A stretch of DNA of 64,000 nucleotides. It comes from Escherichia phage JLBYU50. The position numbers and the translations under genes are program-made. Positions 2,351 to 43,829 of the stretch are shown in pieces. Positions within the stretch are counted from its first letter, which is position 1. Every line of letters starts with the position of its first letter. The notes beneath the pieces were generated by a model. The model did not search any database. It had not been told where the DNA came from and saw nothing but the letters and a program-made list of their open reading frames with translations. The stretch is taken from the sequence record OK272470.1; one strand, given 5' to 3'.

Positions 2351-5226
2351 TGTCAAGAATTAAGCACAGAATTGACAATGTTTTTCAACTGATCGATGGA
2401 CATATTCAGTTCTTAGATCGTAATACAGGTTTAACTGTAGATCCTACAGTGCAACACTATGTATTAAACCCACAAAACGTTCTAGCTAATAACAGACACT
2501 TTATAAACTGGACTGCTCAAGAAGGGCAACCAAACGGGGATGCTACAACAGAAGGTCAATCCGTGCTTATTCTTGGTTGCGCTTATGCATACCTGGCTTC
2601 CGGCGATACAAAGTATTTAGACTCTGCTAAAAAATATTGGCAAGCCTATATAGATTACTTCTTTGGTGGTCAACCTATCCCAGATCCGCCAGCAAAGTAT
2701 CGCCCTAACTGGATTATTAACGGTAAAGAACCACGTCTTGCACATTATCCTCTTACAGATGATGGCTACCCTACACACGGAGGTTTTAAGGGTAGCTTAA
2801 TGACGTGGACTAACGGTAGAACAGTTATTCCTCATGGTGCTCCACATTGGGGAGAATACCTTGACAAAGCATGGTTTGCTTTTAATGGTAATCTAGGATG
2901 GAACTCTGTAAACGCTACAGTATATGCTGTTAATGCAGATGGTACAACAGATTGGTCTAAGAAGGGAGATCAATGGGATGTTGATTGGATCATTGATCGT
3001 CTAGGACGTAAAGTTGATTGGGATGGAAATATCTTAGAAGAAGGTTTTCCAACATCTCAATACGGAACAGTTCAACTAAAAAATACTTCTGTAAATGGTA
3101 CATATAAATTTAACTACGCGACTTGTAACCCTGTTGAACACGGTGGTTATTTAATGGAGCGTAACACTATGTGGCATAACAGACCAGTTAACGTTCCGGT
3201 AGAAATGGGCTTTCAGGATAATGCGTCAGATGCCGAAACTTGGTGGTGTGATGCTAATTACCTGATGTACCAAATTACAGGGGAAAGAAAATATTGGCTA
3301 TGCTGGCAGTCTTCACTGTTAGTGTGTCAAGATTATTCAAACATTGATATGTTTGATAAATTCTTCCGTAAGTCTACATATGCAACTATTCCGTTTACAG
3401 ATGGCATCTCTTACGATTATTCGTATCCATCTACAGCAATACCTAAATATTCAAGAGATACTTTAGGTTATATTGTTATTAGACAAGATGTTGCTGCTCA
3501 AACAACATTAGAACAGCAAGCCATTTGGTTTAAAGTTGATCAGAACTCTAAGTTACGAGTCCAGTTTCAAGGTGTAGATGACGCAGGACAGGGTATTCTT
3601 TTCCGTCCAGAGTTGGAATTAAGTAAGACCAAAGATGAAAATAACACAGTAACTTACCGCTGTGGCTTACCACTAGGTACAGCTAATATGACAAGCATGG
3701 ATATTCCACTATCCAGCTTTATGAGAAGTACCCCTCCTAGTGGTGGAACATATATTATCGCAGATCCGCGAATTATTGTTGACTGGGGTGACAATACTGT
3801 GGTACAATATAAGTATGTAACAGGTATTGCTGGAACTAATAATGACCAGATTGTTACTGCATCAATGGATACGGATGGTGGTATCACTGTTGGTTTTTGG
3901 TTAACTCCTACATCAAAAGCTAATGTTAAGTCTATTACATATAGAACATATGAAGATGACTTTAACATGACTATCACGGATGCTCAAGGTTGGAGATGGT
4001 GGGTTATGCTTCCTAAAACACAAGGAGCATGGAGTACGAAGACTTTATCAGCTTCTGATTTTAAGTTAAGTGCTTACCAGCCTAATCATCCAGATACAGA
4101 TCCTAAACCTTCAGCAATAAATCTTACTGCGGTAGATCAGGTAAATTTAGTTCTTGATACGGCTCCTGTAAATGGTTTAACAGGAACAATAGATTTCTAT
4201 TGTATTAACGATGTACCTGAAAGATATTCGTCATCTTCTGGTGATGATTATACCATGTACTTCCGTATTACTGTACAGGCTTCAAGTCCTCATACTGCTA
4301 AATTAGGTGATTGTACTATTATTGACTATAAATTAAATAGTCTTAATTACACACCAGGAATAATTCCATTCTCTAATATCAGTGACCCAAACACTGCATT
4401 ATACGATGGATGGCGTGGTATTCCATACCCAGGATACCAGTATCCTTCCTTATACTGTTTCGCAGGTAGGGATATTGATTGGACACGTTTAAACAACAGT
4501 ATTGATTTCTTGTATGATGCTCAAATGTGGTTTTATAACACGTTTGATCCTGTGATGCCTGGGCCTATGGCACAAGCATATGTGTGGGATCGTTGGGATG
4601 CAAGAAAATACGGTGAACCTAATACGTTTACAATGAAACACTGGAATGAAAAAGCGTGGGATGGTTATGAAGCTCGTGCATTCTACTGTGCTTGTCATGC
4701 TGTATACGAACTTGTACAAAGAGGAGAAACACCTCCTGAAAAACTAGTAACTGTTTGTAAAAATTGGATCAACTACCTTAAATGGTTCCAAGACAATAAT
4801 GATGGAAGAACACCAACTATCTTTAACCCAGATGGTACAGTTCTTGCTCCTATAGATGACTTTACTAGTCATATGTCTGCACTGTTTATGGCGGGTTGTT
4901 CAATCATGGGCTTGGCAGGTTATGATTCACAAATTCCAAACATTGGTATTGTAGCAGACAGATGTTTTGATCTGATTCAGCAAAACTATATTGTGCTTTC
5001 CCCTAACCATCCGATGAATGGTTCCTGGAGTGTTGCACCACGCCCAGATTCAGATAACGGAATGTTCTTTGGTTTCCATGCTGGAGAACTATTACGTGGT
5101 TTTGGTTTATATGCCTTGTATCGTAAACTAAACCCTCAAAACGCTTTACCAATTTTGGATAATAGTAACATACCAACACTAACTGTTCTAACTATGAATG
5201 ATATTAGTGTTGATGTAACCAAATAA
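2350..5226 (+). CDS. large virion protein, putative tail fibre/baseplate-associated carbohydrate-active protein
   Basis: 958-aa ORF, Trp/Tyr/Asp-rich, translationally coupled to neighbours. Confidence 0.55.
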   Translation: MSRIKHRIDNVFQLIDGHIQFLDRNTGLTVDPTVQHYVLNPQNVLANNRHFINWTAQEGQPNGDATTEGQSVLILGCAYAYLASGDTKYLDSAKKYWQAYIDYFFGGQPIPDPPAKYRPNWIINGKEPRLAHYPLTDDGYPTHGGFKGSLMTWTNGRTVIPHGAPHWGEYLDKAWFAFNGNLGWNSVNATVYAVNADGTTDWSKKGDQWDVDWIIDRLGRKVDWDGNILEEGFPTSQYGTVQLKNTSVNGTYKFNYATCNPVEHGGYLMERNTMWHNRPVNVPVEMGFQDNASDAETWWCDANYLMYQITGERKYWLCWQSSLLVCQDYSNIDMFDKFFRKSTYATIPFTDGISYDYSYPSTAIPKYSRDTLGYIVIRQDVAAQTTLEQQAIWFKVDQNSKLRVQFQGVDDAGQGILFRPELELSKTKDENNTVTYRCGLPLGTANMTSMDIPLSSFMRSTPPSGGTYIIADPRIIVDWGDNTVVQYKYVTGIAGTNNDQIVTASMDTDGGITVGFWLTPTSKANVKSITYRTYEDDFNMTITDAQGWRWWVMLPKTQGAWSTKTLSASDFKLSAYQPNHPDTDPKPSAINLTAVDQVNLVLDTAPVNGLTGTIDFYCINDVPERYSSSSGDDYTMYFRITVQASSPHTAKLGDCTIIDYKLNSLNYTPGIIPFSNISDPNTALYDGWRGIPYPGYQYPSLYCFAGRDIDWTRLNNSIDFLYDAQMWFYNTFDPVMPGPMAQAYVWDRWDARKYGEPNTFTMKHWNEKAWDGYEARAFYCACHAVYELVQRGETPPEKLVTVCKNWINYLKWFQDNNDGRTPTIFNPDGTVLAPIDDFTSHMSALFMAGCSIMGLAGYDSQIPNIGIVADRCFDLIQQNYIVLSPNHPMNGSWSVAPRPDSDNGMFFGFHAGELLRGFGLYALYRKLNPQNALPILDNSNIPTLTVLTMNDISVDVTK

Positions 5227-10412: not shown

Positions 10413-11899
10413 TGGCAGATTATGGTTTAACAGATGCTGGTTTTGTAATTCCAACGTTTGATGATATTTTAAATAATTATATGACAGCATTGAAAAACAC
10501 TTTCGGTGCAGATACAGCTACATCTGAAGATACTGTCTTTGGTCAACTGTTTCGTATTATTGCATATACAGATTACACCCTTTGGGAAGGTATGCAAGGT
10601 GTTTACAATACCCAAACCTTAGATGGTGCAGAAGGTATTTACCTTGATGAAATCTTCTCTAAAAGAGGTTTTTATCGTAAAGCTGCTTCTGCTGGTAGTG
10701 GTTATGCTTATGTTAAATCTAACAATAAGGCAGCTTGGACTTATGAACTAAGCACAGATGTTTATTTTAATGCTGATAACGATTTAACATATTATGTCAG
10801 TGCACCGACAATGTTGAATGCTAAGATTGGAGCATATACCATTTCTAAAGCAAACGCAACAGCTTCTGGTGAAACTTCCATTACTTTCTACATTCAAAGT
10901 GCCATTGATGGTGGGCTTAACAGTAAAACACTAAGTCCTAGCAATACAAACTTTATTGTAGACCTCACGAATTTCATTAAAGCTAACGTATCAACAACAG
11001 ATCGTGCTTTAGTATGGAATGATGCTAGTAATGTTTACATGGGTTATAATCCAGAAGATAATGTTAACCCAGTAGGTCTAGTAACACCAGTGAAATTTTA
11101 CGCATCTATTGCAATAGGTACAAAATGGAGTGAAATTCCAGTTACGTGTTCAGACGTTGGTTATAATCCAGTAGGTACAGAAAGTATTACAGGTATTTCT
11201 TCAACGTTTACAGGCTTTTTAGATACAGGTAACTTCTATCCGTTCTCTCCAGGTACAGATGTTGAAACAGATGCAGAATTCCGTTCTCGTTTCAATGATA
11301 ATATGGATGAAGCTAATGCTGCTACTCGTGCTGCTATTGTTAAAGCTCTATTACTGACAGATGGTGTGACAAAGGTTAAGATTTATGATAACCCTACACT
11401 ACACGATCAGGAACATGCTCCAGCTATGACATTCCAGACTATTGTGTATGGTGGTACAGCAGAAGAAGTTGCACAGGTTATTTATAATACTAAGCCTATT
11501 AACACCTTAACTTATGGTACGACAGCAATTACTATCATAACAGAAGATGGTGGTCAAGAAGTAATTCGTTTTTCTCCTGGGGATAATGCGGAATACTCGC
11601 TTAAACTGGTGTATCAAACTGGCAATGGTAGTGTGTTAAGTACAACAGAAAGGGAAAATATTGTTTCTGCTCTTGCAAACTTACAGGCTTATTTTGAATT
11701 AGGGTCAACAGTAACTAACGACCAGATAAAAGGTGTAATTTATTCTGCACTTGCGTTCGGACGCTTGACTTCTCTCCGTGTTTATGTTAAACTTAATACT
11801 GAGGATGACAGTAAATATAATGAGGGAGATATCACTCCAGCGTACAATGTTGTACCATCCTTTGACCTTGATAATATTTCCTACGAGTACGGAGTCTAA
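10412..11899 (+). CDS. baseplate J-like protein
   Basis: 495 aa; N-terminal MADYGLTDAGFVIPTFDDIL pattern characteristic of baseplate J family. Confidence 0.6.
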   Translation: MADYGLTDAGFVIPTFDDILNNYMTALKNTFGADTATSEDTVFGQLFRIIAYTDYTLWEGMQGVYNTQTLDGAEGIYLDEIFSKRGFYRKAASAGSGYAYVKSNNKAAWTYELSTDVYFNADNDLTYYVSAPTMLNAKIGAYTISKANATASGETSITFYIQSAIDGGLNSKTLSPSNTNFIVDLTNFIKANVSTTDRALVWNDASNVYMGYNPEDNVNPVGLVTPVKFYASIAIGTKWSEIPVTCSDVGYNPVGTESITGISSTFTGFLDTGNFYPFSPGTDVETDAEFRSRFNDNMDEANAATRAAIVKALLLTDGVTKVKIYDNPTLHDQEHAPAMTFQTIVYGGTAEEVAQVIYNTKPINTLTYGTTAITIITEDGGQEVIRFSPGDNAEYSLKLVYQTGNGSVLSTTERENIVSALANLQAYFELGSTVTNDQIKGVIYSALAFGRLTSLRVYVKLNTEDDSKYNEGDITPAYNVVPSFDLDNISYEYGV

Positions 11900-34123: not shown

Positions 34124-34633
34124 TTAGCGATAGAATTGATGTTCTTTGTAGCGGTACACTAGAACCATATCTTTTTCCCAGTGTGCTCTTATTGTAGATT
34201 TTTTAAAGTATAATGCTCCTTTTGTAATATCTAATGCAATTCGTAATTCTGGAAAATGCGTATCGAGATAAAGTAGACGTTCTGCTATAGCCTTAGCTTC
34301 CTTCCACTTATCACGTTCCATAACGTTGAATGTCTTTGTGTAAGAGAATTGTCCTTTTTGAAACAAAACTTCTTTTATAGTATCAGGGAAATATGAATCT
34401 CTAGCCCTATTCAATACTACATTACCAACAGCAGACATACCGCGCTTTCCTTGATTACGACTTTCTGCATAGATTGCACAAGCTAATAGATTTTCTTTAC
34501 TATCACGCTTTGTACACTTGTGAACTACTTTAGCAGTTTTTACGTTTGCAGCTTCGGCTTGCGCCACAACAGGTGTAAATGTAAAAGCAGTTAAGGATAG
34601 TAACGCAATTGCGACAAAGGTTTTTATTGACAA
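34124..34633 (-). CDS. secreted SleB-like cell wall hydrolase (candidate endolysin)
   Basis: Signal peptide MSIKTFVAIALLSLTAFTFTPVVAQA; core AIYAESRNQGKRGMSAVGNVVLNRARDSYFPDTIKEVLFQKGQFSY matches SleB-type hydrolase signature. Confidence 0.7.
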   Translation of the reverse strand: MSIKTFVAIALLSLTAFTFTPVVAQAEAANVKTAKVVHKCTKRDSKENLLACAIYAESRNQGKRGMSAVGNVVLNRARDSYFPDTIKEVLFQKGQFSYTKTFNVMERDKWKEAKAIAERLLYLDTHFPELRIALDITKGALYFKKSTIRAHWEKDMVLVYRYKEHQFYR

Positions 34634-35380: not shown

Positions 35381-35977
35381 TTACTCGAACCAATCGTCGC
35401 CAGCGCCAAACGCTTTAACTACATCGTAAATGTCAAGCCCAGCTTTACCTACACCATATGCTTTCAGTTTCCATTCGTTATCTTCTCGCACCAGGGAGGC
35501 AACGTGGCAAATGGTATTACCTGCAAGTTCTGGAGCCAAGAAGTCAAAATCCAGCAGTTCAACGTTACGTTCATCATCGAAGATTTTAAGGAAACCTTCG
35601 GTAGCGTGACCAAGGCGTTTCTTACCCGTTTCGTCATCAATAGTAATTACGAATGCAATTTCCTGTGCTTCAGCAGAGATATTATCCAGTGTAACATCAA
35701 TCTGCTCCATTTGTCCTACACCATCACGAACATCTTCACCTGCAAAAGTAGAACGTTCAGGATCAAATTTCTGCGCGTAGCACACCAGGTGACGAGGAGA
35801 CAACAGTTCCGGCAGACCAGATGCATTGTGTCGGCAAATCAGAGCACTAACATCCAGATCCAGTTTTTCGTTAGATTTCCAAGAGAATTCCAGACGAATG
35901 CGTTTCAGTGCTGGTGCAATCTTTTTCAGAGAAACTTTTTCGCTAGAACCTTTTTTCAGGGAAATTTTCTGAGTCAT
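35381..35977 (-). CDS. TerD-domain stress protein
   Basis: N-terminal repeated ISLKK...VSLKK; central FAGEDVRDGVGQMEQIDVTL resembling TerD Ca-binding GDN..G.GDDE..I motif. Confidence 0.65.
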   Translation of the reverse strand: MTQKISLKKGSSEKVSLKKIAPALKRIRLEFSWKSNEKLDLDVSALICRHNASGLPELLSPRHLVCYAQKFDPERSTFAGEDVRDGVGQMEQIDVTLDNISAEAQEIAFVITIDDETGKKRLGHATEGFLKIFDDERNVELLDFDFLAPELAGNTICHVASLVREDNEWKLKAYGVGKAGLDIYDVVKAFGAGDDWFE

Positions 35978-36049: not shown

Positions 36050-36844
36050 TTACGCTTTTGCTCCAAATTTTTTAACCCACTCACCAAACTCTTCGGATAA
36101 CAGTTTATCGTAAAGTTCTTCATCAGACAAGGACAAATCTGCAATACCGATAAAATCAACATTATCGTATTCTTTTGCCAAGTCTTTCAGGAATTTAAAG
36201 TTTGCATTACCTACACCAACCATAAACCAGTAAACAGGTGTATTGCGGTGTTTGTTCAGTAAGCTACGTACTGCTGAAGTATCCATGTTCTCCCCGTCAG
36301 TTTGGAAGAAAATCATTGCAGGAGTACGATCAACTTGTGCATCAGTATCTACAACCTGTTCTACAACAGTACGTGTTACTTCTACAAGTTCTTTTTTACC
36401 AGTTAGTTTAGCAAGGAAACCTTTAGCTGGAACTTCTTCATACTCAACGACTTCGCGTGTAATATTTTTCATAGGTACACTACCGAAGTATGTATCATAA
36501 ATGTCTTGCATTACTGGAGCATAAGCTGTACCACCATTGATGCAAACATTAGACATACAAGAGCCGACATAATCATCATATACATCAGCCGTTGCAGGAG
36601 GCAGTTCAAAAGAAGAACTATTGAAAGCCCACATGTCAATCTGCGCATTATCATCAAACTTCATACCAAACGGCAGCAGCTTACCTACAAAATCACTAAC
36701 AGTGCCATCACGATATAGCTCACACATACTACCCGAAATATCTAAGGCGCTACCGACACGAAGAACAACATCGTTAATCTTTTTCTTACGCAGAGATACA
36801 GTAAGAGTTTCTTGACGTTTTTTAAGACTGATTTTATTGGACAT
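36050..36844 (-). CDS. von Willebrand factor A domain protein (TerY-like)
   Basis: MIDAS motif DISGSM near N-terminus; N-terminal ISLKK...SLRKKK resembling TerD leader. Confidence 0.6.
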   Translation of the reverse strand: MSNKISLKKRQETLTVSLRKKKINDVVLRVGSALDISGSMCELYRDGTVSDFVGKLLPFGMKFDDNAQIDMWAFNSSSFELPPATADVYDDYVGSCMSNVCINGGTAYAPVMQDIYDTYFGSVPMKNITREVVEYEEVPAKGFLAKLTGKKELVEVTRTVVEQVVDTDAQVDRTPAMIFFQTDGENMDTSAVRSLLNKHRNTPVYWFMVGVGNANFKFLKDLAKEYDNVDFIGIADLSLSDEELYDKLLSEEFGEWVKKFGAKA

Positions 36845-37871: not shown

Positions 37872-38104
37872 TACACATTCTCCTCTTTTACCAATTCCAT
37901 CGTTGAACTATCAAAACCATCTTTAGAAGAATAGGTATAGACAGAACGTAGTTCTCGCAGGACAGTGAATACATTGGGATCATCTAACCAAGCATCCTGG
38001 AGGAGAACATAACGATCTTCATTGTCGTACTGGACAGCAATCATAGAACCAGACAGTTTGTAAATTTTAATATTCATAATATATTTCTCCTTAAAGTAGA
38101 CCAC
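37871..38104 (-). CDS. hypothetical small protein
   Basis: 77 aa. Confidence 0.4.
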   Translation of the reverse strand: MVYFKEKYIMNIKIYKLSGSMIAVQYDNEDRYVLLQDAWLDDPNVFTVLRELRSVYTYSSKDGFDSSTMELVKEENV

Positions 38105-39194
38105 GTTTAACAGTTTGAATCATACCATCTTCAAGAGATTGCACTTCTTGAATGTAATCAATACGCGCAGCACGGGCTTCAGTGTTGATTCGGTTAGTTT
38201 CTTCCAACATTTTAACTAAGTTTTCTTGATCGCGACGTAATGTCTCAATATCCAATACTTGACGATTAGCAAGTTGTGTAGCTTCAATTTGGTTTTGTGC
38301 CGCCAGATCACTACCCATTGCAATAGCAGCATTAAATTCATTCAGCACATTGTTCTGTGTATCGGCTGCTTTCTTCTGGCGTAGACTTTCAATATACATA
38401 GAAAAGTTTGCAGAGTAAGCAGGGATAACATTATTCACAATATTACGGGCTGATCGCATCAAACTTGCAGATACTTTCTGCATACTTTGTACACGTGGCC
38501 CCATCTGAACACACAGTAAGCGTAGGGCTTTCAGGTCTGCAATACGAATTTCAAGCAGATCCATAGTATCACGAGTACGTTGACGCTCTTCTACCTCATT
38601 TTCAGGCAGTGTATTAAGGCGAACTTCTTCTTTTTCATACGTAGCTGTTAGAAGCTCTATATCTCTGTTTAAGCTAAGAGCATATTTGGCAATAGCCTCT
38701 TCTAAACGTTGCAGATATCGTAAAGAATCTTCTTCTTTTTTCAAGTCTGTTTGGAGTGTCTTTACCAAACCTTCAATACGATTATTGATGGTGTCAAATT
38801 CTCCAAACAAATCTTCTTTCATACCTAATACTTTCTTAACTAGTTTACCTAAGCCTTTAGATTGCTTAATAGAGTTAGGATCAAGTTGCTTTGCTTGCTT
38901 AATAAGTGCAGTTAAACGTTCACTCATTTCATCCCCCTGAGATGAACGCTGGTGTTTAAGCACTTCAGCATTAAGGTTACGAAGAGTAAGTCCTGCATCA
39001 GCACCAACTTGTTCAATCTCTTCACGAGACATTGGAGGCAGCATTTGTACAGGTCGTGCAACAGCAGGGGCATATACAGGGCTTGCATCCATAGCACTTG
39101 GAGCAAATAAAGACTTACTTTTTTCTGTTGTTGCCGTGAATACACTCATTTCAGACGGTTTGCTTTTTACGGCACTGATAAAAGGACTGGACAT
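38091..39194 (-). CDS. TelA-like (toxic anion resistance family) coiled-coil protein
   Basis: 367-aa all-helical protein; assignment rests on overall pattern and genomic linkage with TerD/TerC/vWA genes. Confidence 0.45.
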   Translation of the reverse strand: MSSPFISAVKSKPSEMSVFTATTEKSKSLFAPSAMDASPVYAPAVARPVQMLPPMSREEIEQVGADAGLTLRNLNAEVLKHQRSSQGDEMSERLTALIKQAKQLDPNSIKQSKGLGKLVKKVLGMKEDLFGEFDTINNRIEGLVKTLQTDLKKEEDSLRYLQRLEEAIAKYALSLNRDIELLTATYEKEEVRLNTLPENEVEERQRTRDTMDLLEIRIADLKALRLLCVQMGPRVQSMQKVSASLMRSARNIVNNVIPAYSANFSMYIESLRQKKAADTQNNVLNEFNAAIAMGSDLAAQNQIEATQLANRQVLDIETLRRDQENLVKMLEETNRINTEARAARIDYIQEVQSLEDGMIQTVKRGLL

Positions 39195-39262
39195 TCAATT
39201 TCCTCCATATTCTTTAGTAGATGGTGATACCTCTGTACCACCATCATAACACAAATTAAGTA

Positions 39263-40114
39263 TTAAACAAACATATCTAAATAATTTGTAGTAATAAACG
39301 CCCCATCTGCTTCCAGATTAACATAACCAGTAGCATTAGTGGTTAAGAAATCCAGATCGAAGGACTCTTTAACACCCCGTACCTCAACACGAGAGATATC
39401 GAATACAGGTAGTGTAACAGCCTCTTCGTGCAATACCGTACCTTTGTAGGTTGCCTTAATGATAAACTTGATATTACCCGTTCCAGCATCATACAAAACA
39501 CTTTCAAACCCTTTGAGAGTATATTTATCACCAGAAGTGAAGTGCAAAGTTGCTTTGTTTACAGTACGTTTTTTACGAGGAGTTCCTTTCACACGTTTAT
39601 GATCACTACGTTTTTTGTACTTAGGAATGAATACAAACGATACATTCTGAAGAAAGGTATCAACATCAAGGATTTTAATATCCTCTGTTGCAGCAAATTT
39701 TGAAGTCGTTGCATCAAAATGCTTTTCCCTGCGATCATACATAAAGATATCAAACCGATCTTCTAAATCAAACAAATTATGTATTTTAATTTCAGAATGC
39801 TTGCGCATTGCAGCAACCTTGAACTCTTCAAAACGTGGGTGTTCTACAAGTTCTTCAAGTTTTACACCAAAGACAGTATATTGCTTCGGAGTTTTTTCTG
39901 GTGTTGGCATTACAGAAGCATAATCCCCGATTGCGCTCTTAAAGCAAAATTGTTCTTGACCTGTATTTTTACCAACGAATTTACAGTATTCATCATTGTG
40001 CATACTTTCCTTAGTAGTACCAACAAACTCAAAACCATCTTTATTCTTCTCAAGAATTTCTTGATTAAAGATCCAACCTTCCAGGCGATACACTTTACCA
40101 ACTTCTAGTTTCAT
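39263..40114 (-). CDS. hypothetical protein
   Basis: 283-aa ORF. Confidence 0.5.
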   Translation of the reverse strand: MKLEVGKVYRLEGWIFNQEILEKNKDGFEFVGTTKESMHNDEYCKFVGKNTGQEQFCFKSAIGDYASVMPTPEKTPKQYTVFGVKLEELVEHPRFEEFKVAAMRKHSEIKIHNLFDLEDRFDIFMYDRREKHFDATTSKFAATEDIKILDVDTFLQNVSFVFIPKYKKRSDHKRVKGTPRKKRTVNKATLHFTSGDKYTLKGFESVLYDAGTGNIKFIIKATYKGTVLHEEAVTLPVFDISRVEVRGVKESFDLDFLTTNATGYVNLEADGAFITTNYLDMFV

Positions 40115-40149
40115 CTGTTTCTCCTTCTTATTTAATCTGTATTAAATTA

Positions 40150-40740
40150 TTAACGACGACGTGAGCTACTAAAACTACGTTTCGACGAAGAATAACTTTT
40201 CGAAGACTTACTATAAGAGCTAATAGGACTTGAGTAAGACTTACGAGCAGAGTAATCACTATTCACTTTTGTTGTTGATGGGCGTGAATACGTTTGTACA
40301 CTTTGCTGCTTAATTGTGTTTTGTTTAGTGGTTGTATATGTATTTCCTTGTTTATCATAAAAACTATGCTTTTGTGTTGTATATGCTTTGCTATTAGTTG
40401 TAGGAGCAGCGTTGTTATTGATAATTGTTGTATTGCTACCGCCATCTCTATAACCACCACCGCCACTATTACCACTCAACATATGACCAAGAAGCATACC
40501 TGTAGCAAACTCACCTACACCAGAAGAACCACTGCCGCCTCCTTGCACAACAACTGTTGAAGGTTGTGCAGGTGCTGCTTGAACAACTTGAGGTGCAGGT
40601 TGATTTACATATTGTTCATCTACCATCTGATTTGGTGTTTGTTGGTAACGTTGATTTTGTACATTTTCAGAATCATCACAACCTACCAGCAATACACTAC
40701 CTAAAACAACTGCAACAATAAAAGATTTAATGTTTTTCAT
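40150..40740 (-). CDS. outer-membrane lipoprotein with Gly-zipper-like and Ser/Tyr-rich regions
   Basis: Start reassigned to ATG at 40740; signal peptide with lipobox LLVGC; GGGSGSSGVGEFATGMLLGHMLSGNSGGGG. Confidence 0.5.
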   Translation of the reverse strand: MKNIKSFIVAVVLGSVLLVGCDDSENVQNQRYQQTPNQMVDEQYVNQPAPQVVQAAPAQPSTVVVQGGGSGSSGVGEFATGMLLGHMLSGNSGGGGYRDGGSNTTIINNNAAPTTNSKAYTTQKHSFYDKQGNTYTTTKQNTIKQQSVQTYSRPSTTKVNSDYSARKSYSSPISSYSKSSKSYSSSKRSFSSSRRR

Positions 40741-40933
40741 TTGTAACCCTCTCATTTAAAGTCTCAACACAATTTTTAAAATCCCTAGAGAAACAATACA
40801 TCTGTTCTCCGTTCCTGTTGATAGTAATTGTATGGTTATCAATATATGTTGTCAAGATAAAAATCAAACAAAACAACCCTAGAGCAAAACAAATATTTTC
40901 AAACAGAATCCAAAGAACACGTAAAACCACCAT
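40727..40933 (-). CDS. small membrane protein
   Basis: 68 aa with hydrophobic LGLFCLIFILTTYI segment. Confidence 0.35.
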   Translation of the reverse strand: MVVLRVLWILFENICFALGLFCLIFILTTYIDNHTITINRNGEQMYCFSRDFKNCVETLNERVTNEKH

Positions 40934-40946
40934 CAGATCACCTCAA

Positions 40947-40968
40947 TAAAGCCCCCGAAGGGGCTTAA
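40947..40968 (-). terminator. stem-loop downstream of TerC-family gene
   Basis: aagcccc-cgaa-ggggctt hairpin. Confidence 0.55.
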
Positions 40969-40972
40969 TGAA

Positions 40973-41950
40973 TTAAGCAACAGCCTGGTCTTCTTTTTCA
41001 GGGAAGATTAAACTTGCAATAACACCCAACCCAAGAGTACCTAACACAATATACATACTGATCGTCGGATCAATGTGTGCTGGTAGGAAACTCACTTTTG
41101 CGTGCAGAGTTTCTGCAAACGGGTGATACATCAGTTTTACACCCACAAATACCAGGACTACGATAACTGCTTTCTCCAGATGAACCAAATACTTCAGTGC
41201 AACACTAAGAACAAAGAACAGAGCGCGTAAACCTAAGATTGCACAGAGCATCGAAGAGAACACCAGCAGAGGTTCTTGTGTCACTGCAATTACTGCTGGA
41301 ACAGAGTCTACTGCAAAGATTACGTCAACCATTTCCATTACAAACACACAAACCAGAGCCGGAGTTGCTACACGAACACCATTTTTGATTGTGAAGAACT
41401 TCTCACCATCCATCTGATCAGATACAGGGAACAGCTTACGAACAATGCGAGTAGCCCAGTGTTTAGAGTAATCAACTTCTGCATCATTATCTCCAGCGAA
41501 TACCATTTTAGCCGCACAGAAAAGGATGACAGCACCGAAGAAGATATTAACATACCAGCCCAAACTCAACAAGTAAGTACCTACTGCTACAAACACACCT
41601 CGGAAGACAATCGCACCTGCAATACCCCAAAGTAGAATCTTGTGTTGCAAGTGTGTGCTTTTAATACCAAAACTTGCGAATACTGCCACAAATACTACTA
41701 AGTTATCTACAGAAAGAGATTTCTCCAACACATACCCACTCAAGAACAAACTCGCAAAATCAGCACCGTGTTGGAAGTATACAAAACCATAGTAGGCTAA
41801 TGATACCCCAATCCAGAAAATTGACCAACCAACTGCCGATTTAAATGAAATCTCTTTGTTTTCTCTGTGTCCAAAGAAATCAATACAAATCGACAACACT
41901 AAAATACCCACTAAAACAACCACATCAATAATTGGGAAACCCAGTTGCAT
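40973..41950 (-). CDS. TerC-family integral membrane protein
   Basis: Multi-TM 325-aa protein with duplicated signature LEKSLSVDNLVVFVAVF and FAVDSVPAVIAVT. Confidence 0.75.
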   Translation of the reverse strand: MQLGFPIIDVVVLVGILVLSICIDFFGHRENKEISFKSAVGWSIFWIGVSLAYYGFVYFQHGADFASLFLSGYVLEKSLSVDNLVVFVAVFASFGIKSTHLQHKILLWGIAGAIVFRGVFVAVGTYLLSLGWYVNIFFGAVILFCAAKMVFAGDNDAEVDYSKHWATRIVRKLFPVSDQMDGEKFFTIKNGVRVATPALVCVFVMEMVDVIFAVDSVPAVIAVTQEPLLVFSSMLCAILGLRALFFVLSVALKYLVHLEKAVIVVLVFVGVKLMYHPFAETLHAKVSFLPAHIDPTISMYIVLGTLGLGVIASLIFPEKEDQAVA

Positions 41951-41968
41951 TCTTTTCTCCTCTTTAAT

Positions 41969-41987
41969 GCGGAGGACAATCCTCCGC
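41969..41987 (-). promoter_or_regulatory. hairpin in 5' leader of TerC-family gene
   Basis: gcggagg-acaat-cctccgc stem-loop immediately upstream of the RBS gaggag. Confidence 0.35.
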
Positions 41988-42027
41988 TCTATGTCTTATA
42001 CTATAAACTGTTTTTAAAGAAAGTCAA

Positions 42028-42327
42028 CTAGTTCAGTTCTGTAATTTTAAGTTTATCTTCTTTGTTAATGATAGGGAAAGCTACAGCATCACCTACGTCA
42101 TCAATAAAGCAAATAGCAAGGCCACCTTCCACTTTGCTAATCTGACCATTAAAGGCGTGATACGGGGCAGGAACTTGATCTCCATCTTCAAGGAGAATAG
42201 CCTCGTAAACCTTGCCGATAGTACAATCACGAGTGTTTCTAAATTTTTCAAGCACTTCAACATTTACTTTACGCATATAAAATCCTCTCTTATTTGTTAG
42301 ATTGAAAGATACCACGGAGTACCGCAA
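42028..42327 (-). CDS. hypothetical protein
   Basis: 99-aa ORF. Confidence 0.45.
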   Translation of the reverse strand: MRYSVVSFNLTNKRGFYMRKVNVEVLEKFRNTRDCTIGKVYEAILLEDGDQVPAPYHAFNGQISKVEGGLAICFIDDVGDAVAFPIINKEDKLKITELN

Positions 42328-42496
42328 GAATGAACGTCACACAGACTACACTCCAAAACGTTACAGGAACATGATGCCAGTCTAAGCCGATAATGTCAAT
42401 CATATAATTGTATGCTAAAAGCAGTAGCCAACTAGGGATTAACACAATCAAGAACACAACAATAAAACAACCTAATACTGCTAAAACACCTGCCAT
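42290..42496 (-). CDS. small two-helix membrane protein
   Basis: 68 aa, two hydrophobic helices. Confidence 0.4.
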   Translation of the reverse strand: MAGVLAVLGCFIVVFLIVLIPSWLLLLAYNYMIDIIGLDWHHVPVTFWSVVCVTFILAVLRGIFQSNK

Positions 42497-42505
42497 ACTT
42501 TCTCC

Positions 42506-42883
42506 TTATTTCAGTTTGTAAACAATTACATTTAAACCTTTGTTTACTAGAGTTTCTTCGATCATAAGTTTTACAATATTCCAAGAACCTCCAGCCAAAC
42601 CACAACCAAGCATTGGTAAACCTACAATTTTACCGCCTGAAGATACAACATCGTCTCCCATACTATCTAGCGCATTGTAGATAGCTTCATAATTCAGGTC
42701 ACGCTTACCTTCCTCACGACGACTATAACCATATTGTCCATATAAATTATAAATTGTCAAATTGTTTTCTGTATATTTGGTAAACGTACCTAATTTTTTA
42801 TAATCACCACGTTTAGTGGCACAATCTGCTTTAAACGCACCAGGCCACTTGCTTTTAATTTTTGGTGCAATACCACTACCCAT
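42506..42883 (-). CDS. macro-domain-like protein (N-terminally truncated relative to canonical macro)
   Basis: MGSGIAPKIKSKWPG resembles macro Gly-rich phosphate loop; C-terminal KIVGLPMLGCGLAGGSWNIV resembles second macro signature; start overlaps stop of AAA+ gene. Confidence 0.4.
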   Translation of the reverse strand: MGSGIAPKIKSKWPGAFKADCATKRGDYKKLGTFTKYTENNLTIYNLYGQYGYSRREEGKRDLNYEAIYNALDSMGDDVVSSGGKIVGLPMLGCGLAGGSWNIVKLMIEETLVNKGLNVIVYKLK

Positions 42884-43829
42884 AGTGCAAAAACAGTTGA
42901 AGATGCTCTTCTCCTGACTTATGGTCTACAGCTACAACATAACGATTACCGCTAAACAAACCTTGTGCTGTCATACCGTCAATATCGGTATCTGCCGAAA
43001 CATCTCCTGTACGATCTACACCGTTAACTTTCAGGAGTTTAACTTCTTTTGCAGCATAGCGGTGTTCAGTAATACTGATACCCATTAATGCAAGTGCATC
43101 AGAGAATTTGTCATTAGGGTAACGGTTAAGTTCTTCTACTAGTGACTGAACAATATCAAAGTTCAAGTCCACGGAAAGATTATAAAGCGTTTCAAAATCT
43201 GGTAAAAAGGCTTTGTTCTCCAGATTTTTAGCCAGATAGTCATCCATAGTAGCTTTAGGTAGTTTCTTATAGCTAAAGCTGTAGAAAATACGGCTAGGAC
43301 GATTACGCAAAAATTCTGATACATAACCATCATTTTTAGTCAATACAAACAGCTTGTCATAGCCACCAACACCATCCAGCAGGGTAAGCAAACCATCCTG
43401 TGCATCTTTTTCAGCATACAGTTTATCAAATTCATCGATCATAATCATCACAGGTTGTGTGATTTTAGACATAAAATTGATAAAGCCTTCACCATTAAAA
43501 GCACTACCGATAGAAATAGTAGGAATACCCATTTCACGAAGAGCAGAAGATAGCATTTTAGCTTGCAAAGTTTTACCGCTACCCTTCGTACCCTCAAGGA
43601 GAACACCTGTGTTTTTACCTTTGCGGCTAAGGAACGTCTTGATAATACGTTCTGATTTATCATCAGTATCACCGTATGTTACTGAAGGGACTTCCATATC
43701 GTTTTTAGGATACAGGAAGAACTCACCACTTTGAGTAACACCTACACCAAAAGTTCCTGCTGGAATTTCTTCAATATCTGTACCAGACTTCTGACGCAGG
43801 AAGATTTGATTGCCGAATACTGTAAACAT
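42876..43829 (-). CDS. AAA+ ATPase (paralog A)
   Basis: Walker A GTKGSGKT; Walker B IMIDEFDK; sensor-1 FVLTKN; Arg-finger NRPSRIFY. Confidence 0.65.
   Translation of the reverse strand: MFTVFGNQIFLRQKSGTDIEEIPAGTFGVGVTQSGEFFLYPKNDMEVPSVTYGDTDDKSERIIKTFLSRKGKNTGVLLEGTKGSGKTLQAKMLSSALREMGIPTISIGSAFNGEGFINFMSKITQPVMIMIDEFDKLYAEKDAQDGLLTLLDGVGGYDKLFVLTKNDGYVSEFLRNRPSRIFYSFSYKKLPKATMDDYLAKNLENKAFLPDFETLYNLSVDLNFDIVQSLVEELNRYPNDKFSDALALMGISITEHRYAAKEVKLLKVNGVDRTGDVSADTDIDGMTAQGLFSGNRYVVAVDHKSGEEHLQLFLHYG

Follow-up and report, generated by a model that had tools for sequence, protein, structure and literature searches.

Phages are known to encode envelope lipoproteins, examples being Llp, Cor and the spanins, and several of these govern the entry of other phages into an infected cell, which matters for phage ecology and for the design of phage cocktails. 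Exclusion at the DNA-entry step, after adsorption, is a proven function of Ltp from Streptococcus phage TP-J34 and of Imm/Sp from phage T4, and both T5 Llp and T4 Imm/Sp combine early host-type expression with an envelope location. T5 Llp and the Cor proteins of phi80 and N15 block FhuA; Llp has a compact fold, and both kinds of protein work in the outer membrane (PMC9586334). Here we analysed two overlapping genes, gp180 and gp181, in a 64,000-nucleotide stretch of the genome of Escherichia phage JLBYU50 (OK272470.1; the whole stretch is referred to as the window). A preliminary description of this DNA had proposed a lipoprotein and a small membrane protein beside TerC, with superinfection exclusion or receptor masking as the role.

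Like Llp and Cor, gp180 is phage-encoded, carries a lipobox and would be an early protein of the infected-cell envelope. In contrast, Llp and Cor are small, folded, outer-membrane proteins aimed at a specific receptor, whereas gp180 is predicted to be an inner-membrane, disordered protein of 175 residues. No sequence or PHROG relationship between gp180 and Llp or Cor was found, and gp180 lacked the features of Llp/Cor-type proteins. The mode that we propose for gp180 is closer to that of Ltp and Imm/Sp, which act after adsorption, either in the periplasm or on the outer side of the cytoplasmic membrane; however, Ltp has folded helix-turn-helix-like repeats and Imm is a polytopic membrane protein, and neither is homologous to gp180.

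The region from 39200 to 42400, in which every gene lies on the minus strand, shared 97.7-99.1% DNA identity with genomes of Justusliebigvirus (Escherichia phages, among the 30 matches listed), and the window is assigned to a phi92-like myovirus of this genus (Stephanstirmvirinae). The two open reading frames are Phi92_gp180 and Phi92_gp181, as annotated in phi92, Paula and BME3, and the gene order in phage Paula and phi92 is gp182 (TerC), gp181, gp180, gp179 and gp178 (TelA). The gp180 sequence of the window is exactly that of a hypothetical protein of JLBYU50. All the sequence features named in the preliminary description are present, on the minus strand. Both genes had already been annotated as hypothetical; what is new here is the family membership of gp180 and the disordered architecture shared within that family. 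We are highly confident that both genes are real, belong to a virulent phage of the phi92 type, and encode a disordered periplasmic lipoprotein and a single-pass membrane protein.

Layout of gp180 and its family

The ATG at 40740 (MKNIKS...) was favoured over the start at 40755 because a GAGAGGG ribosome-binding site lies 6 nt upstream of it and because the same start is used in relatives, namely the three curated records of phi92, Paula and BME3. The N-terminus reads MKNIKSFIVAVVLGSVLLVG followed by CDD and contains a lipobox of the form [LVI][ASTVI][GAS]C. The LLVGC lipobox of the preliminary description was confirmed as L-V-G-C with Cys21, in agreement with the phi92 record, in which a signal peptide of exactly 20 residues is annotated from SignalP, with cleavage after residue 20. 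It is well supported that gp180 is a lipoprotein precursor, predicted to be exported, lipid-modified on Cys21 and cleaved. The mature chain has 175 residues, and Cys21 is its only Cys. The core contains 15 Gly around GVGEFATGMLLGHMLS, with GGGSGSSG on one side and GNSGGGG on the other, which is the glycine stretch noticed earlier; the low-complexity tail, also noticed earlier as S/Y/K-rich, contains 23 Ser, 12 Thr, 10 Lys, 8 Tyr and 6 Arg (Table 1). The DNA beneath this tail showed no tandem repeat and no composition anomaly. gp180 is present in a single copy in the window, where no second lipobox reading frame was found.

Comparison of gp180 and gp181 with homologues from Citrobacter phage Tr1, phAPEC8 and metagenomes gave 0.27-0.54 non-synonymous changes per site and approximately 0.5-0.8 synonymous changes per site, the latter being saturated. 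The exception to saturation was a near-identical pair (L005/L010), for which the ratio of non-synonymous to synonymous rates in gp180 was 0.10. Non-synonymous change was far below synonymous change in both genes, as in real genes under purifying selection.

A first search with gp180 returned 29 clusters on contigs of 1-154 kb, the longest being of about 140-155 kb. In an alignment of 20 relatives, Cys21 was invariant and Asp22, Asp23, VVVQ, SGVGDFATGMILGHMMSG, TTIINNN and the terminal SSSRRR were nearly invariant; within the helix of the core, G81 was invariant and G85 nearly so, and M82, H86 and M87 were conserved within the close family. When the profile of this alignment was compared with 1.84 billion representative proteins, 255 proteins were matched at E<1e-3, and the size of the family is given here as a lower bound of at least 255 clusters. 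The members retrieved are 110-220 aa long and carry a signal peptide with its Cys, a Q/P-rich linker, PV(I/V)VQ, xSGxGDxxTGMxLGHMMSGG, TTVVNKTVVNKT and a Ser/Arg/Lys/Tyr tail.

Features were counted in 150 aligned representatives, of which 123 were scored for charge, hydropathy and His. A strict lipobox was present in 129/150, most of the others having a near-lipobox Cys, and at least two K/R among the last four residues were present in 137/150; the C-termini are RR, RK or KR (RR in 78, RK in 23). Among the 123 members scored, the net charge of the linker was zero or negative in 121 and that of the tail was positive in 122 (mean +10.5), the His of the helix was kept in 53, and the core exceeded the Kyte-Doolittle transmembrane threshold of 1.6 in only one.

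gp180 matched phrog_21570 with an E value of 4e-123, and 41 of 45 diverse family members also matched this PHROG. The family maps to PHROG 21570 and 32479, both of unknown function, and gp180 has the complete layout of these groups, that is, a lipobox Cys, a Q/P linker, a GxxxG helix between Gly runs, TT(V/I)(V/I)N and a basic Ser-rich tail with a dibasic end. Single members among the 45 weakly matched Rz-like spanin and DNA methyltransferase families. Neither gp180 nor gp181 matched a family of known function in PHROG, Pfam, NCBIfam or PADLOC, and no Pfam family covers gp180 or its family members. The family is named 'hypothetical protein' in databases, with an automatic 'Lipoprotein' label in two Phapecoctavirus entries.

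A tblastn search with two distant members against cultured phages gave no match. A strict DNA pattern scan gave two matches in 185,579 bacterial and archaeal genomes and three viral matches; the longer of the two genome matches (18.6 kb), which was the only readable one, comes from a phAPEC8-like phage whose contig had been binned into a metagenome-assembled genome. All nine of the longer contexts of family members were phage. They comprised a distant phi92-like contig of 153 kb, the 18.6-kb binned contig and contigs of 47-129 kb carrying genes for DNA polymerase A, ribonucleotide reductase, Thy1, DnaB-primase, portal, Acb2/Tad1-like or amidoligase proteins. No recurrent neighbour was found across these contexts; small transmembrane proteins were frequently adjacent, but they were non-homologous. 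By these sequence comparisons, gp180 is a member of a large, previously undescribed lipoprotein family with a fixed layout, seen only in phages in the contexts examined.

Three further observations were made on relatives. In phAPEC8 (JX561091.1), the annotated start of the lipoprotein gene (4477-4989) appears to be 25 codons too far upstream, and MKKLALILIGCIFLTAC at 4552 is the probable real start. Directly upstream of one family member (contig L015, 5757-5987) lies a gene whose 76-aa product starts with a lipobox region (LVSGC) and has a hydrophobic segment towards its C-terminus, a layout that is the same as that of a unimolecular spanin. In two contigs that look unrelated, L013 (7076-11074) and P0183, the family member lies just upstream of a cluster of COOH-NH2 ligase, Amidoligase_2, GATase and ATP-grasp genes; common descent of the two phages, and not a link in function, may account for this.

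Predicted structure, sorting and possible action of gp180

AlphaFold returned no fold for gp180 when given the 20-sequence alignment (predicted local distance difference test score, pLDDT, 46). With 45 diverse sequences the score was 55, and a single helix was modelled in an otherwise disordered chain. G81 and G85 form a GxxxG on one face of this helix, beside Met82, His86 and Met87. The models describe gp180 as intrinsically disordered save for this one 16-residue helix. The Kyte-Doolittle value of the core, approximately 0.5-0.6, is far under the range of a Sec-integrated transmembrane segment, and for this reason the whole mature chain would be expected in the periplasm. The 'Gly-zipper' of the preliminary description therefore holds only in part: GxxxG is present, but in a single helix that is too polar to be a transmembrane segment.

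The lipid anchor and a small-residue (GxxxG) helix are shared with the bacterial glycine-zipper lipoproteins SlyB/Pcp, OsmB and YfgH, which have roles in envelope stress (for YfgH, bioRxiv 10.64898/2025.12.22.696046). These are outer-membrane proteins with at least two zipper helices, whereas gp180 has one helix and long disordered acidic and basic arms. The Pfam glycine-zipper families (Gly-zipper_Omp, Gly-zipper_YMGG and Rick_17kDa_Anti) matched neither whole gp180 at E<=0.1 nor the core alone at E<=10. DUF2076 was also rejected (16.6 bits versus a cutoff of 38), and YjbE was sub-threshold or absent. A profile search of the PDB gave matches to signal peptides only, apart from a non-significant match to prion protein.

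Insertion into the membrane as a bundle has been proposed for the glycine zippers of prion protein and amyloid-beta. If the gp180 helix behaved in this way, the resulting leak or pore could tune membrane potential, and the basic tail would be cytoplasmic. The weak PDB match is to the Gly-zipper region of prion protein (E 0.8), G81 is invariant and G85 nearly so, and the charge split of the family fits the positive-inside rule. However, the hydrophobic stretch spans no more than about 11 residues and contains Asp/Glu and His, its hydropathy is far under the transmembrane range, the prion-protein match is not significant, and a pore formed early would damage the infected cell. We regard such an oligomer as distinctly unlikely.

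In E. coli, lipoproteins avoid the Lol system when Asp is at position +2, an effect reinforced by Asp, Glu, Gln or Asn at +3; Asp+2/Asp+3, as in AcrA, is the strongest combination. gp180 has Cys21-Asp22-Asp23, with the near-invariance in the close family described above. Because of this Asp pair, the E. coli rule predicts that gp180 would be retained in the inner membrane, in its outer leaflet, in an E. coli host. Masking of an outer-membrane receptor in the manner of T5 Llp or phi80 Cor, one of the two roles proposed earlier, would suit a phage lipoprotein with early-type expression signals. It is disfavoured because gp180 is predicted to stay in the inner membrane, whereas the outer membrane is the site of action of Llp and Cor. 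Moreover, gp180 is disordered and Llp is compact, mature gp180 has no Cys besides the lipid-modified one, and the PHROGs of gp180, all of unknown function, show no relationship to Llp or Cor. We consider this role very unlikely.

Our leading explanation, held with low confidence, is that gp180 modifies the envelope from the periplasm early in infection, possibly causing superinfection exclusion at the injection step; we give the whole chain, including its mechanism, a probability of roughly 0.3. Host RNA polymerase would transcribe gp180 early, starting at a promoter that lies within gp181. The GxxxG helix of gp180 would promote self-association at the membrane surface, and its polycationic tail may bind anionic envelope material, either phospholipid head groups or peptidoglycan. 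The resulting coat on the periplasmic face of the envelope would block the genome entry of later-arriving phages, and would not mask a receptor. TerC would be an incidental neighbour of gp180, and gp181 may partner TerC instead. Exclusion at the entry step is compatible with the predicted location, the early-type promoter-like site and the phage-only distribution of the family; however, this is compatibility and not evidence.

Several points weigh against this explanation. No homology ties the gp180 family to exclusion, and we know of no exclusion mechanism that works by a disordered coat; self-association of the helix and binding of the tail are purely inferred. The promoter is a consensus match only and is weak in one metagenomic relative (L007), and its conservation at the codon level is not decisive. 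Retention in the inner membrane follows from the +2 rule of E. coli, and the phAPEC8 homologue has Cys-Glu-Asp; across the family, the +2 residue is D in 42 members, G in 36 and S in 27, so that membrane location may not be uniform. The family-wide split between an acidic N-terminal and a basic C-terminal side of the helix also fits an N-out/C-in membrane protein.

The same anchored chain could instead stabilise the envelope, with the basic tail tethering it to peptidoglycan or to the outer membrane. In this case the entry of other phages would be unaffected, and the envelope would be held together during infection against premature lysis, lysis from without or vesiculation. A lipid anchor, a long disordered spacer and a conserved dibasic C-terminus superficially resemble Braun's lipoprotein, the C-terminus of which is Tyr-Arg-Lys, and stress-type genes lie nearby (TelA, TerD and vWA-TerF-like genes in the window; Band_7 in contigs L003 and L022). 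However, the C-termini of the family end mostly in Arg and not Lys (RR far more often than RK), which makes covalent linkage of the Lpp type unlikely, and no peptidoglycan-binding domain was detected with Pfam. Such a tether seems to us rather improbable.

A further possibility is that the family consists of prion-like (Gln/Asn/Ser/Tyr/Gly-rich) lipoproteins that do not bind one receptor but build a polymeric or gel-like layer on a membrane surface in the periplasm, nucleated by a glycine-zipper helix like that of PrP or amyloid-beta and held by the polycationic tail. We consider this unlikely; if true, viruses would have a new physical means of sealing or remodelling the envelope of bacteria.

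gp181, TerC and transcription signals

The preliminary description had noted a hydrophobic 68-aa reading frame next to the lipoprotein gene. This is gp181, a predicted inner-membrane protein with one N-terminal transmembrane segment (mean Kyte-Doolittle value of 2.4 over 17 residues); the last 14 nt of its gene are shared with the beginning of gp180. The helix is followed by a GEQ motif and two conserved Cys; this C-terminal part, of about 35 residues, probably faces the periplasm, and the two Cys suggest a periplasmic disulfide. With a lipoprotein signal in gp180, a membrane protein in gp181 and a gp180 family confined to phage contexts, the earlier reading of the pair as phage-encoded envelope proteins stands. 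The gp181 family is very narrow. DUF6693 scored 21.5 bits against gp181, below the Pfam cutoff of 31. Hok/Gef proteins are alike in layout only, with an N-terminal transmembrane helix and a short periplasmic part that contains Cys and an R-D/N-G turn; an hhalign probability of 0.3%, which is only indicative, and the lack of a match to Pfam Hok_Gef led us to reject this identity. In phAPEC8 (JX561091.1), an unannotated gp181 homologue lies at 4365-4610, its start overlapping the gene before it at an ATGA.

A small inner-membrane protein gene overlapping a lipoprotein gene is also the arrangement of Rz/Rz1 spanins, and one family member each weakly matched Rz-like PHROGs. gp181 and gp180 could on this basis be lysis proteins, either a pair like i-spanin and o-spanin or a holin/antiholin. 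However, the sorting signal of gp180 is wrong, Asp at +2 being incompatible with an outer-membrane o-spanin, gp180 has no Cys beyond Cys21 and gp181 has no periplasmic coiled coil. In addition, BME3, a 98% relative, has a separate annotated pair of overlapped i-/o-spanin genes by the terminase and lists gp180 and gp181 as hypothetical (PMC12210895), and the surroundings of gp180 and gp181 are early or metabolic genes. We rejected the spanin pair and regard a lysis role in general as highly improbable.

The order TerC-gp181-gp180-gp179 was kept in four Stephanstirmvirinae lineages, namely Tr1, two metagenomic relatives and phAPEC8 (with one gene inserted), down to about 40% identity. gp181 was seen only where TerC lies directly upstream, in 4/4 such lineages, and was absent where TerC was absent. 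In seven contexts outside these lineages, no TerC was found near the gp180-family member and no gp181 homologue beside it. A GC-rich hairpin lies between the TerC stop and the gp181 start, and hairpins with differing stems occupy the same place in Tr1, the two metagenomic relatives and phAPEC8; the terminator scan flagged those of phAPEC8 and L007, but not that of the window. This element is probably a leaky terminator or a 3' stabiliser of the TerC transcript.

Of the sigma-70 matches in the 5.5 kb scanned for promoters, the best falls inside gp181. Three of the four lineages compared have a promoter-like site at this position, namely that of the window, Tr1 (9/12 matches) and phAPEC8 (10/12), and L007 retained the -35 element only. 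The TTG Leu codon of the -35 element is identical in all four lineages, yet 5/17 codons of invariant residues are identical anyway, and the codon-level conservation of this candidate promoter is only suggestive. In our reading, TerC would largely be its own transcription unit, gp181 would rely on read-through, and gp180 and the later genes could be transcribed separately by the host polymerase. The leader of the TerC gene itself (41969-42027, minus strand) contains an 8-bp GC-rich hairpin, GCGGAGGA-TTG-TCCTCCGC, just before a GAGGAG ribosome-binding site, with which the CCUCC arm could pair instead. No riboswitch or other Rfam element was found around TerC.

Because seven contexts lack TerC, a hairpin follows TerC and a promoter-like site lies in gp181, we consider the adjacency of TerC to be lineage-specific and probably without functional coupling to gp180. 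The position 'beside TerC' is true of the window, but it does not extend to the family. A link with TerC is more plausible for gp181, because gp181 is found only directly downstream of TerC.

Ter modules of the tellurite-resistance type are a known stress system, and genes for TerC, TelA, TerD and a vWA-TerF-like protein are neighbours of gp180 here, whereas gp180 relatives occur without Ter genes nearby. It is conceivable that gp181, and perhaps gp180, act with TerC in metal or ion handling, with the Met/His face of the gp180 helix binding metal. The gene order kept in four lineages, the restriction of gp181 to sites downstream of TerC, its transcription only by read-through from TerC, the other Ter-type genes and the conservation of M82, H86 and M87 in the close family agree with this. 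However, TerC is missing from the seven contexts mentioned above, the His is replaced in over half of the members scored, TerC and gp181 have a hairpin between them, and no homologue in a bacterial ter operon was found, the genome pattern scan having given only a phage contig. Neither gp180 nor gp181 matched a Ter family in Pfam, and PADLOC had no defence model for gp180, gp181, TerC or TelA. Overall, we judge an accessory role in a Ter module to be improbable, and more likely for gp181 than for gp180.

The surrounding region and the meaning of the family

The coordinates of the features in the window are listed in Table 1.

Table 1. Positions of gp180, gp181 and surrounding features in the window.
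Feature	Position	Strand	Comment
gp180, 196-aa lipoprotein precursor	40150-40740	-	Ribosome-binding site and start in relatives; open reading frame readable from 40755 (201 aa)
gp180 signal peptide (residues 1-20) and Cys21, predicted lipid-modified	40678-40740	-	Lipobox L-V-G-C, then Asp22-Asp23
gp180 acidic Gln/Pro-rich linker (residues 22-64)	40549-40677	-	Net charge -4; ends in conserved VVVQ strand-like motif
gp180 conserved core (residues 65-110)	40411-40548	-	Gly run, GxxxG Met/His helix, Gly run, TTIINNN
gp180 GxxxG Met/His helix (residues 74-89)	40474-40521	-	AlphaFold pLDDT 64-73
gp180 polybasic Ser/Thr/Tyr/Lys low-complexity tail (residues 111-196)	40153-40410	-	Net charge +14; ends SSSRRR
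gp181, 68-aa single-pass membrane protein	40727-40933	-	GAGGTG ribosome-binding site
gp181 transmembrane segment (about residues 5-29)	40847-40921	-	Invariant Glu12, Cys15, Gly19
Sigma-70-like promoter inside gp181	40827-40855	-	TTGACA-17-TACAAT, 11/12; about 85 nt upstream of gp180 start
GC-rich UUCG hairpin, then T-rich run	40945-40966	-	Between TerC stop (40973) and gp181 start (40933)
TerC-family membrane protein	40973-41950	-	Pfam TerC, E 1.2e-38; context, outside the gp180 family signature
TerC promoter-like site	42000-42027	-	TTGACT-16-TATAGT
gp184, 68 aa	42290-42496	-	Two hydrophobic segments by eye
Truncated Macro reading frame	42506-42883	-	Stub at the 42898/42899 junction
Truncated AAA reading frame	42876-43829	-	Stub at the 42898/42899 junction
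TelA	38091-39194		Pfam
vWA-TerF-like	36050-36844		Pfam
TerD	35381-35977		Pfam
SleB-type hydrolase	34124-34633		Pfam

Further observations were made around the two genes. gp184, labelled 'holin' in BME3, matched a single PHROG, one of unknown function, and forms a cluster of membrane proteins together with TerC, gp181 and gp180. At the junction 42898/42899, 2460 bp present in phage Paula (locus L001, 9701-12160) are absent from the window. The genes gp186 (phosphoribosyltransferase), gp187 (HAD hydrolase), gp188 and gp189 are lost whole, whereas the macrodomain gene gp185 has lost its N-terminal part and the AAA ATPase gene gp190 its C-terminal end, leaving the two stubs listed in Table 1. The flanks of this junction were joined in none of 54 deposited relatives. 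Among its tail-fibre and tailspike genes, at 11011-11352, BME3 (L024) has an annotated gene for a second lipoprotein, which has 113 aa and no relationship to gp180. Several records named as Campylobacter phages (A150, A145, C3 and A110a; host given as Campylobacter jejuni) and that of a Serratia phage were at least 98% identical to these E. coli phages, which suggests mis-assigned hosts or contaminant phages.

gp180 is named 'hypothetical protein' in more than 50 deposited genomes. Its placement in a family of at least 255 clusters provides a defined target, through which hundreds of phage genes could come to be annotated. If expression of gp180 has no effect, it would be one more accessory gene. 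If, on the other hand, gp180 does act by disorder and self-association and not through a folded binding site, it would represent a new mechanism class.

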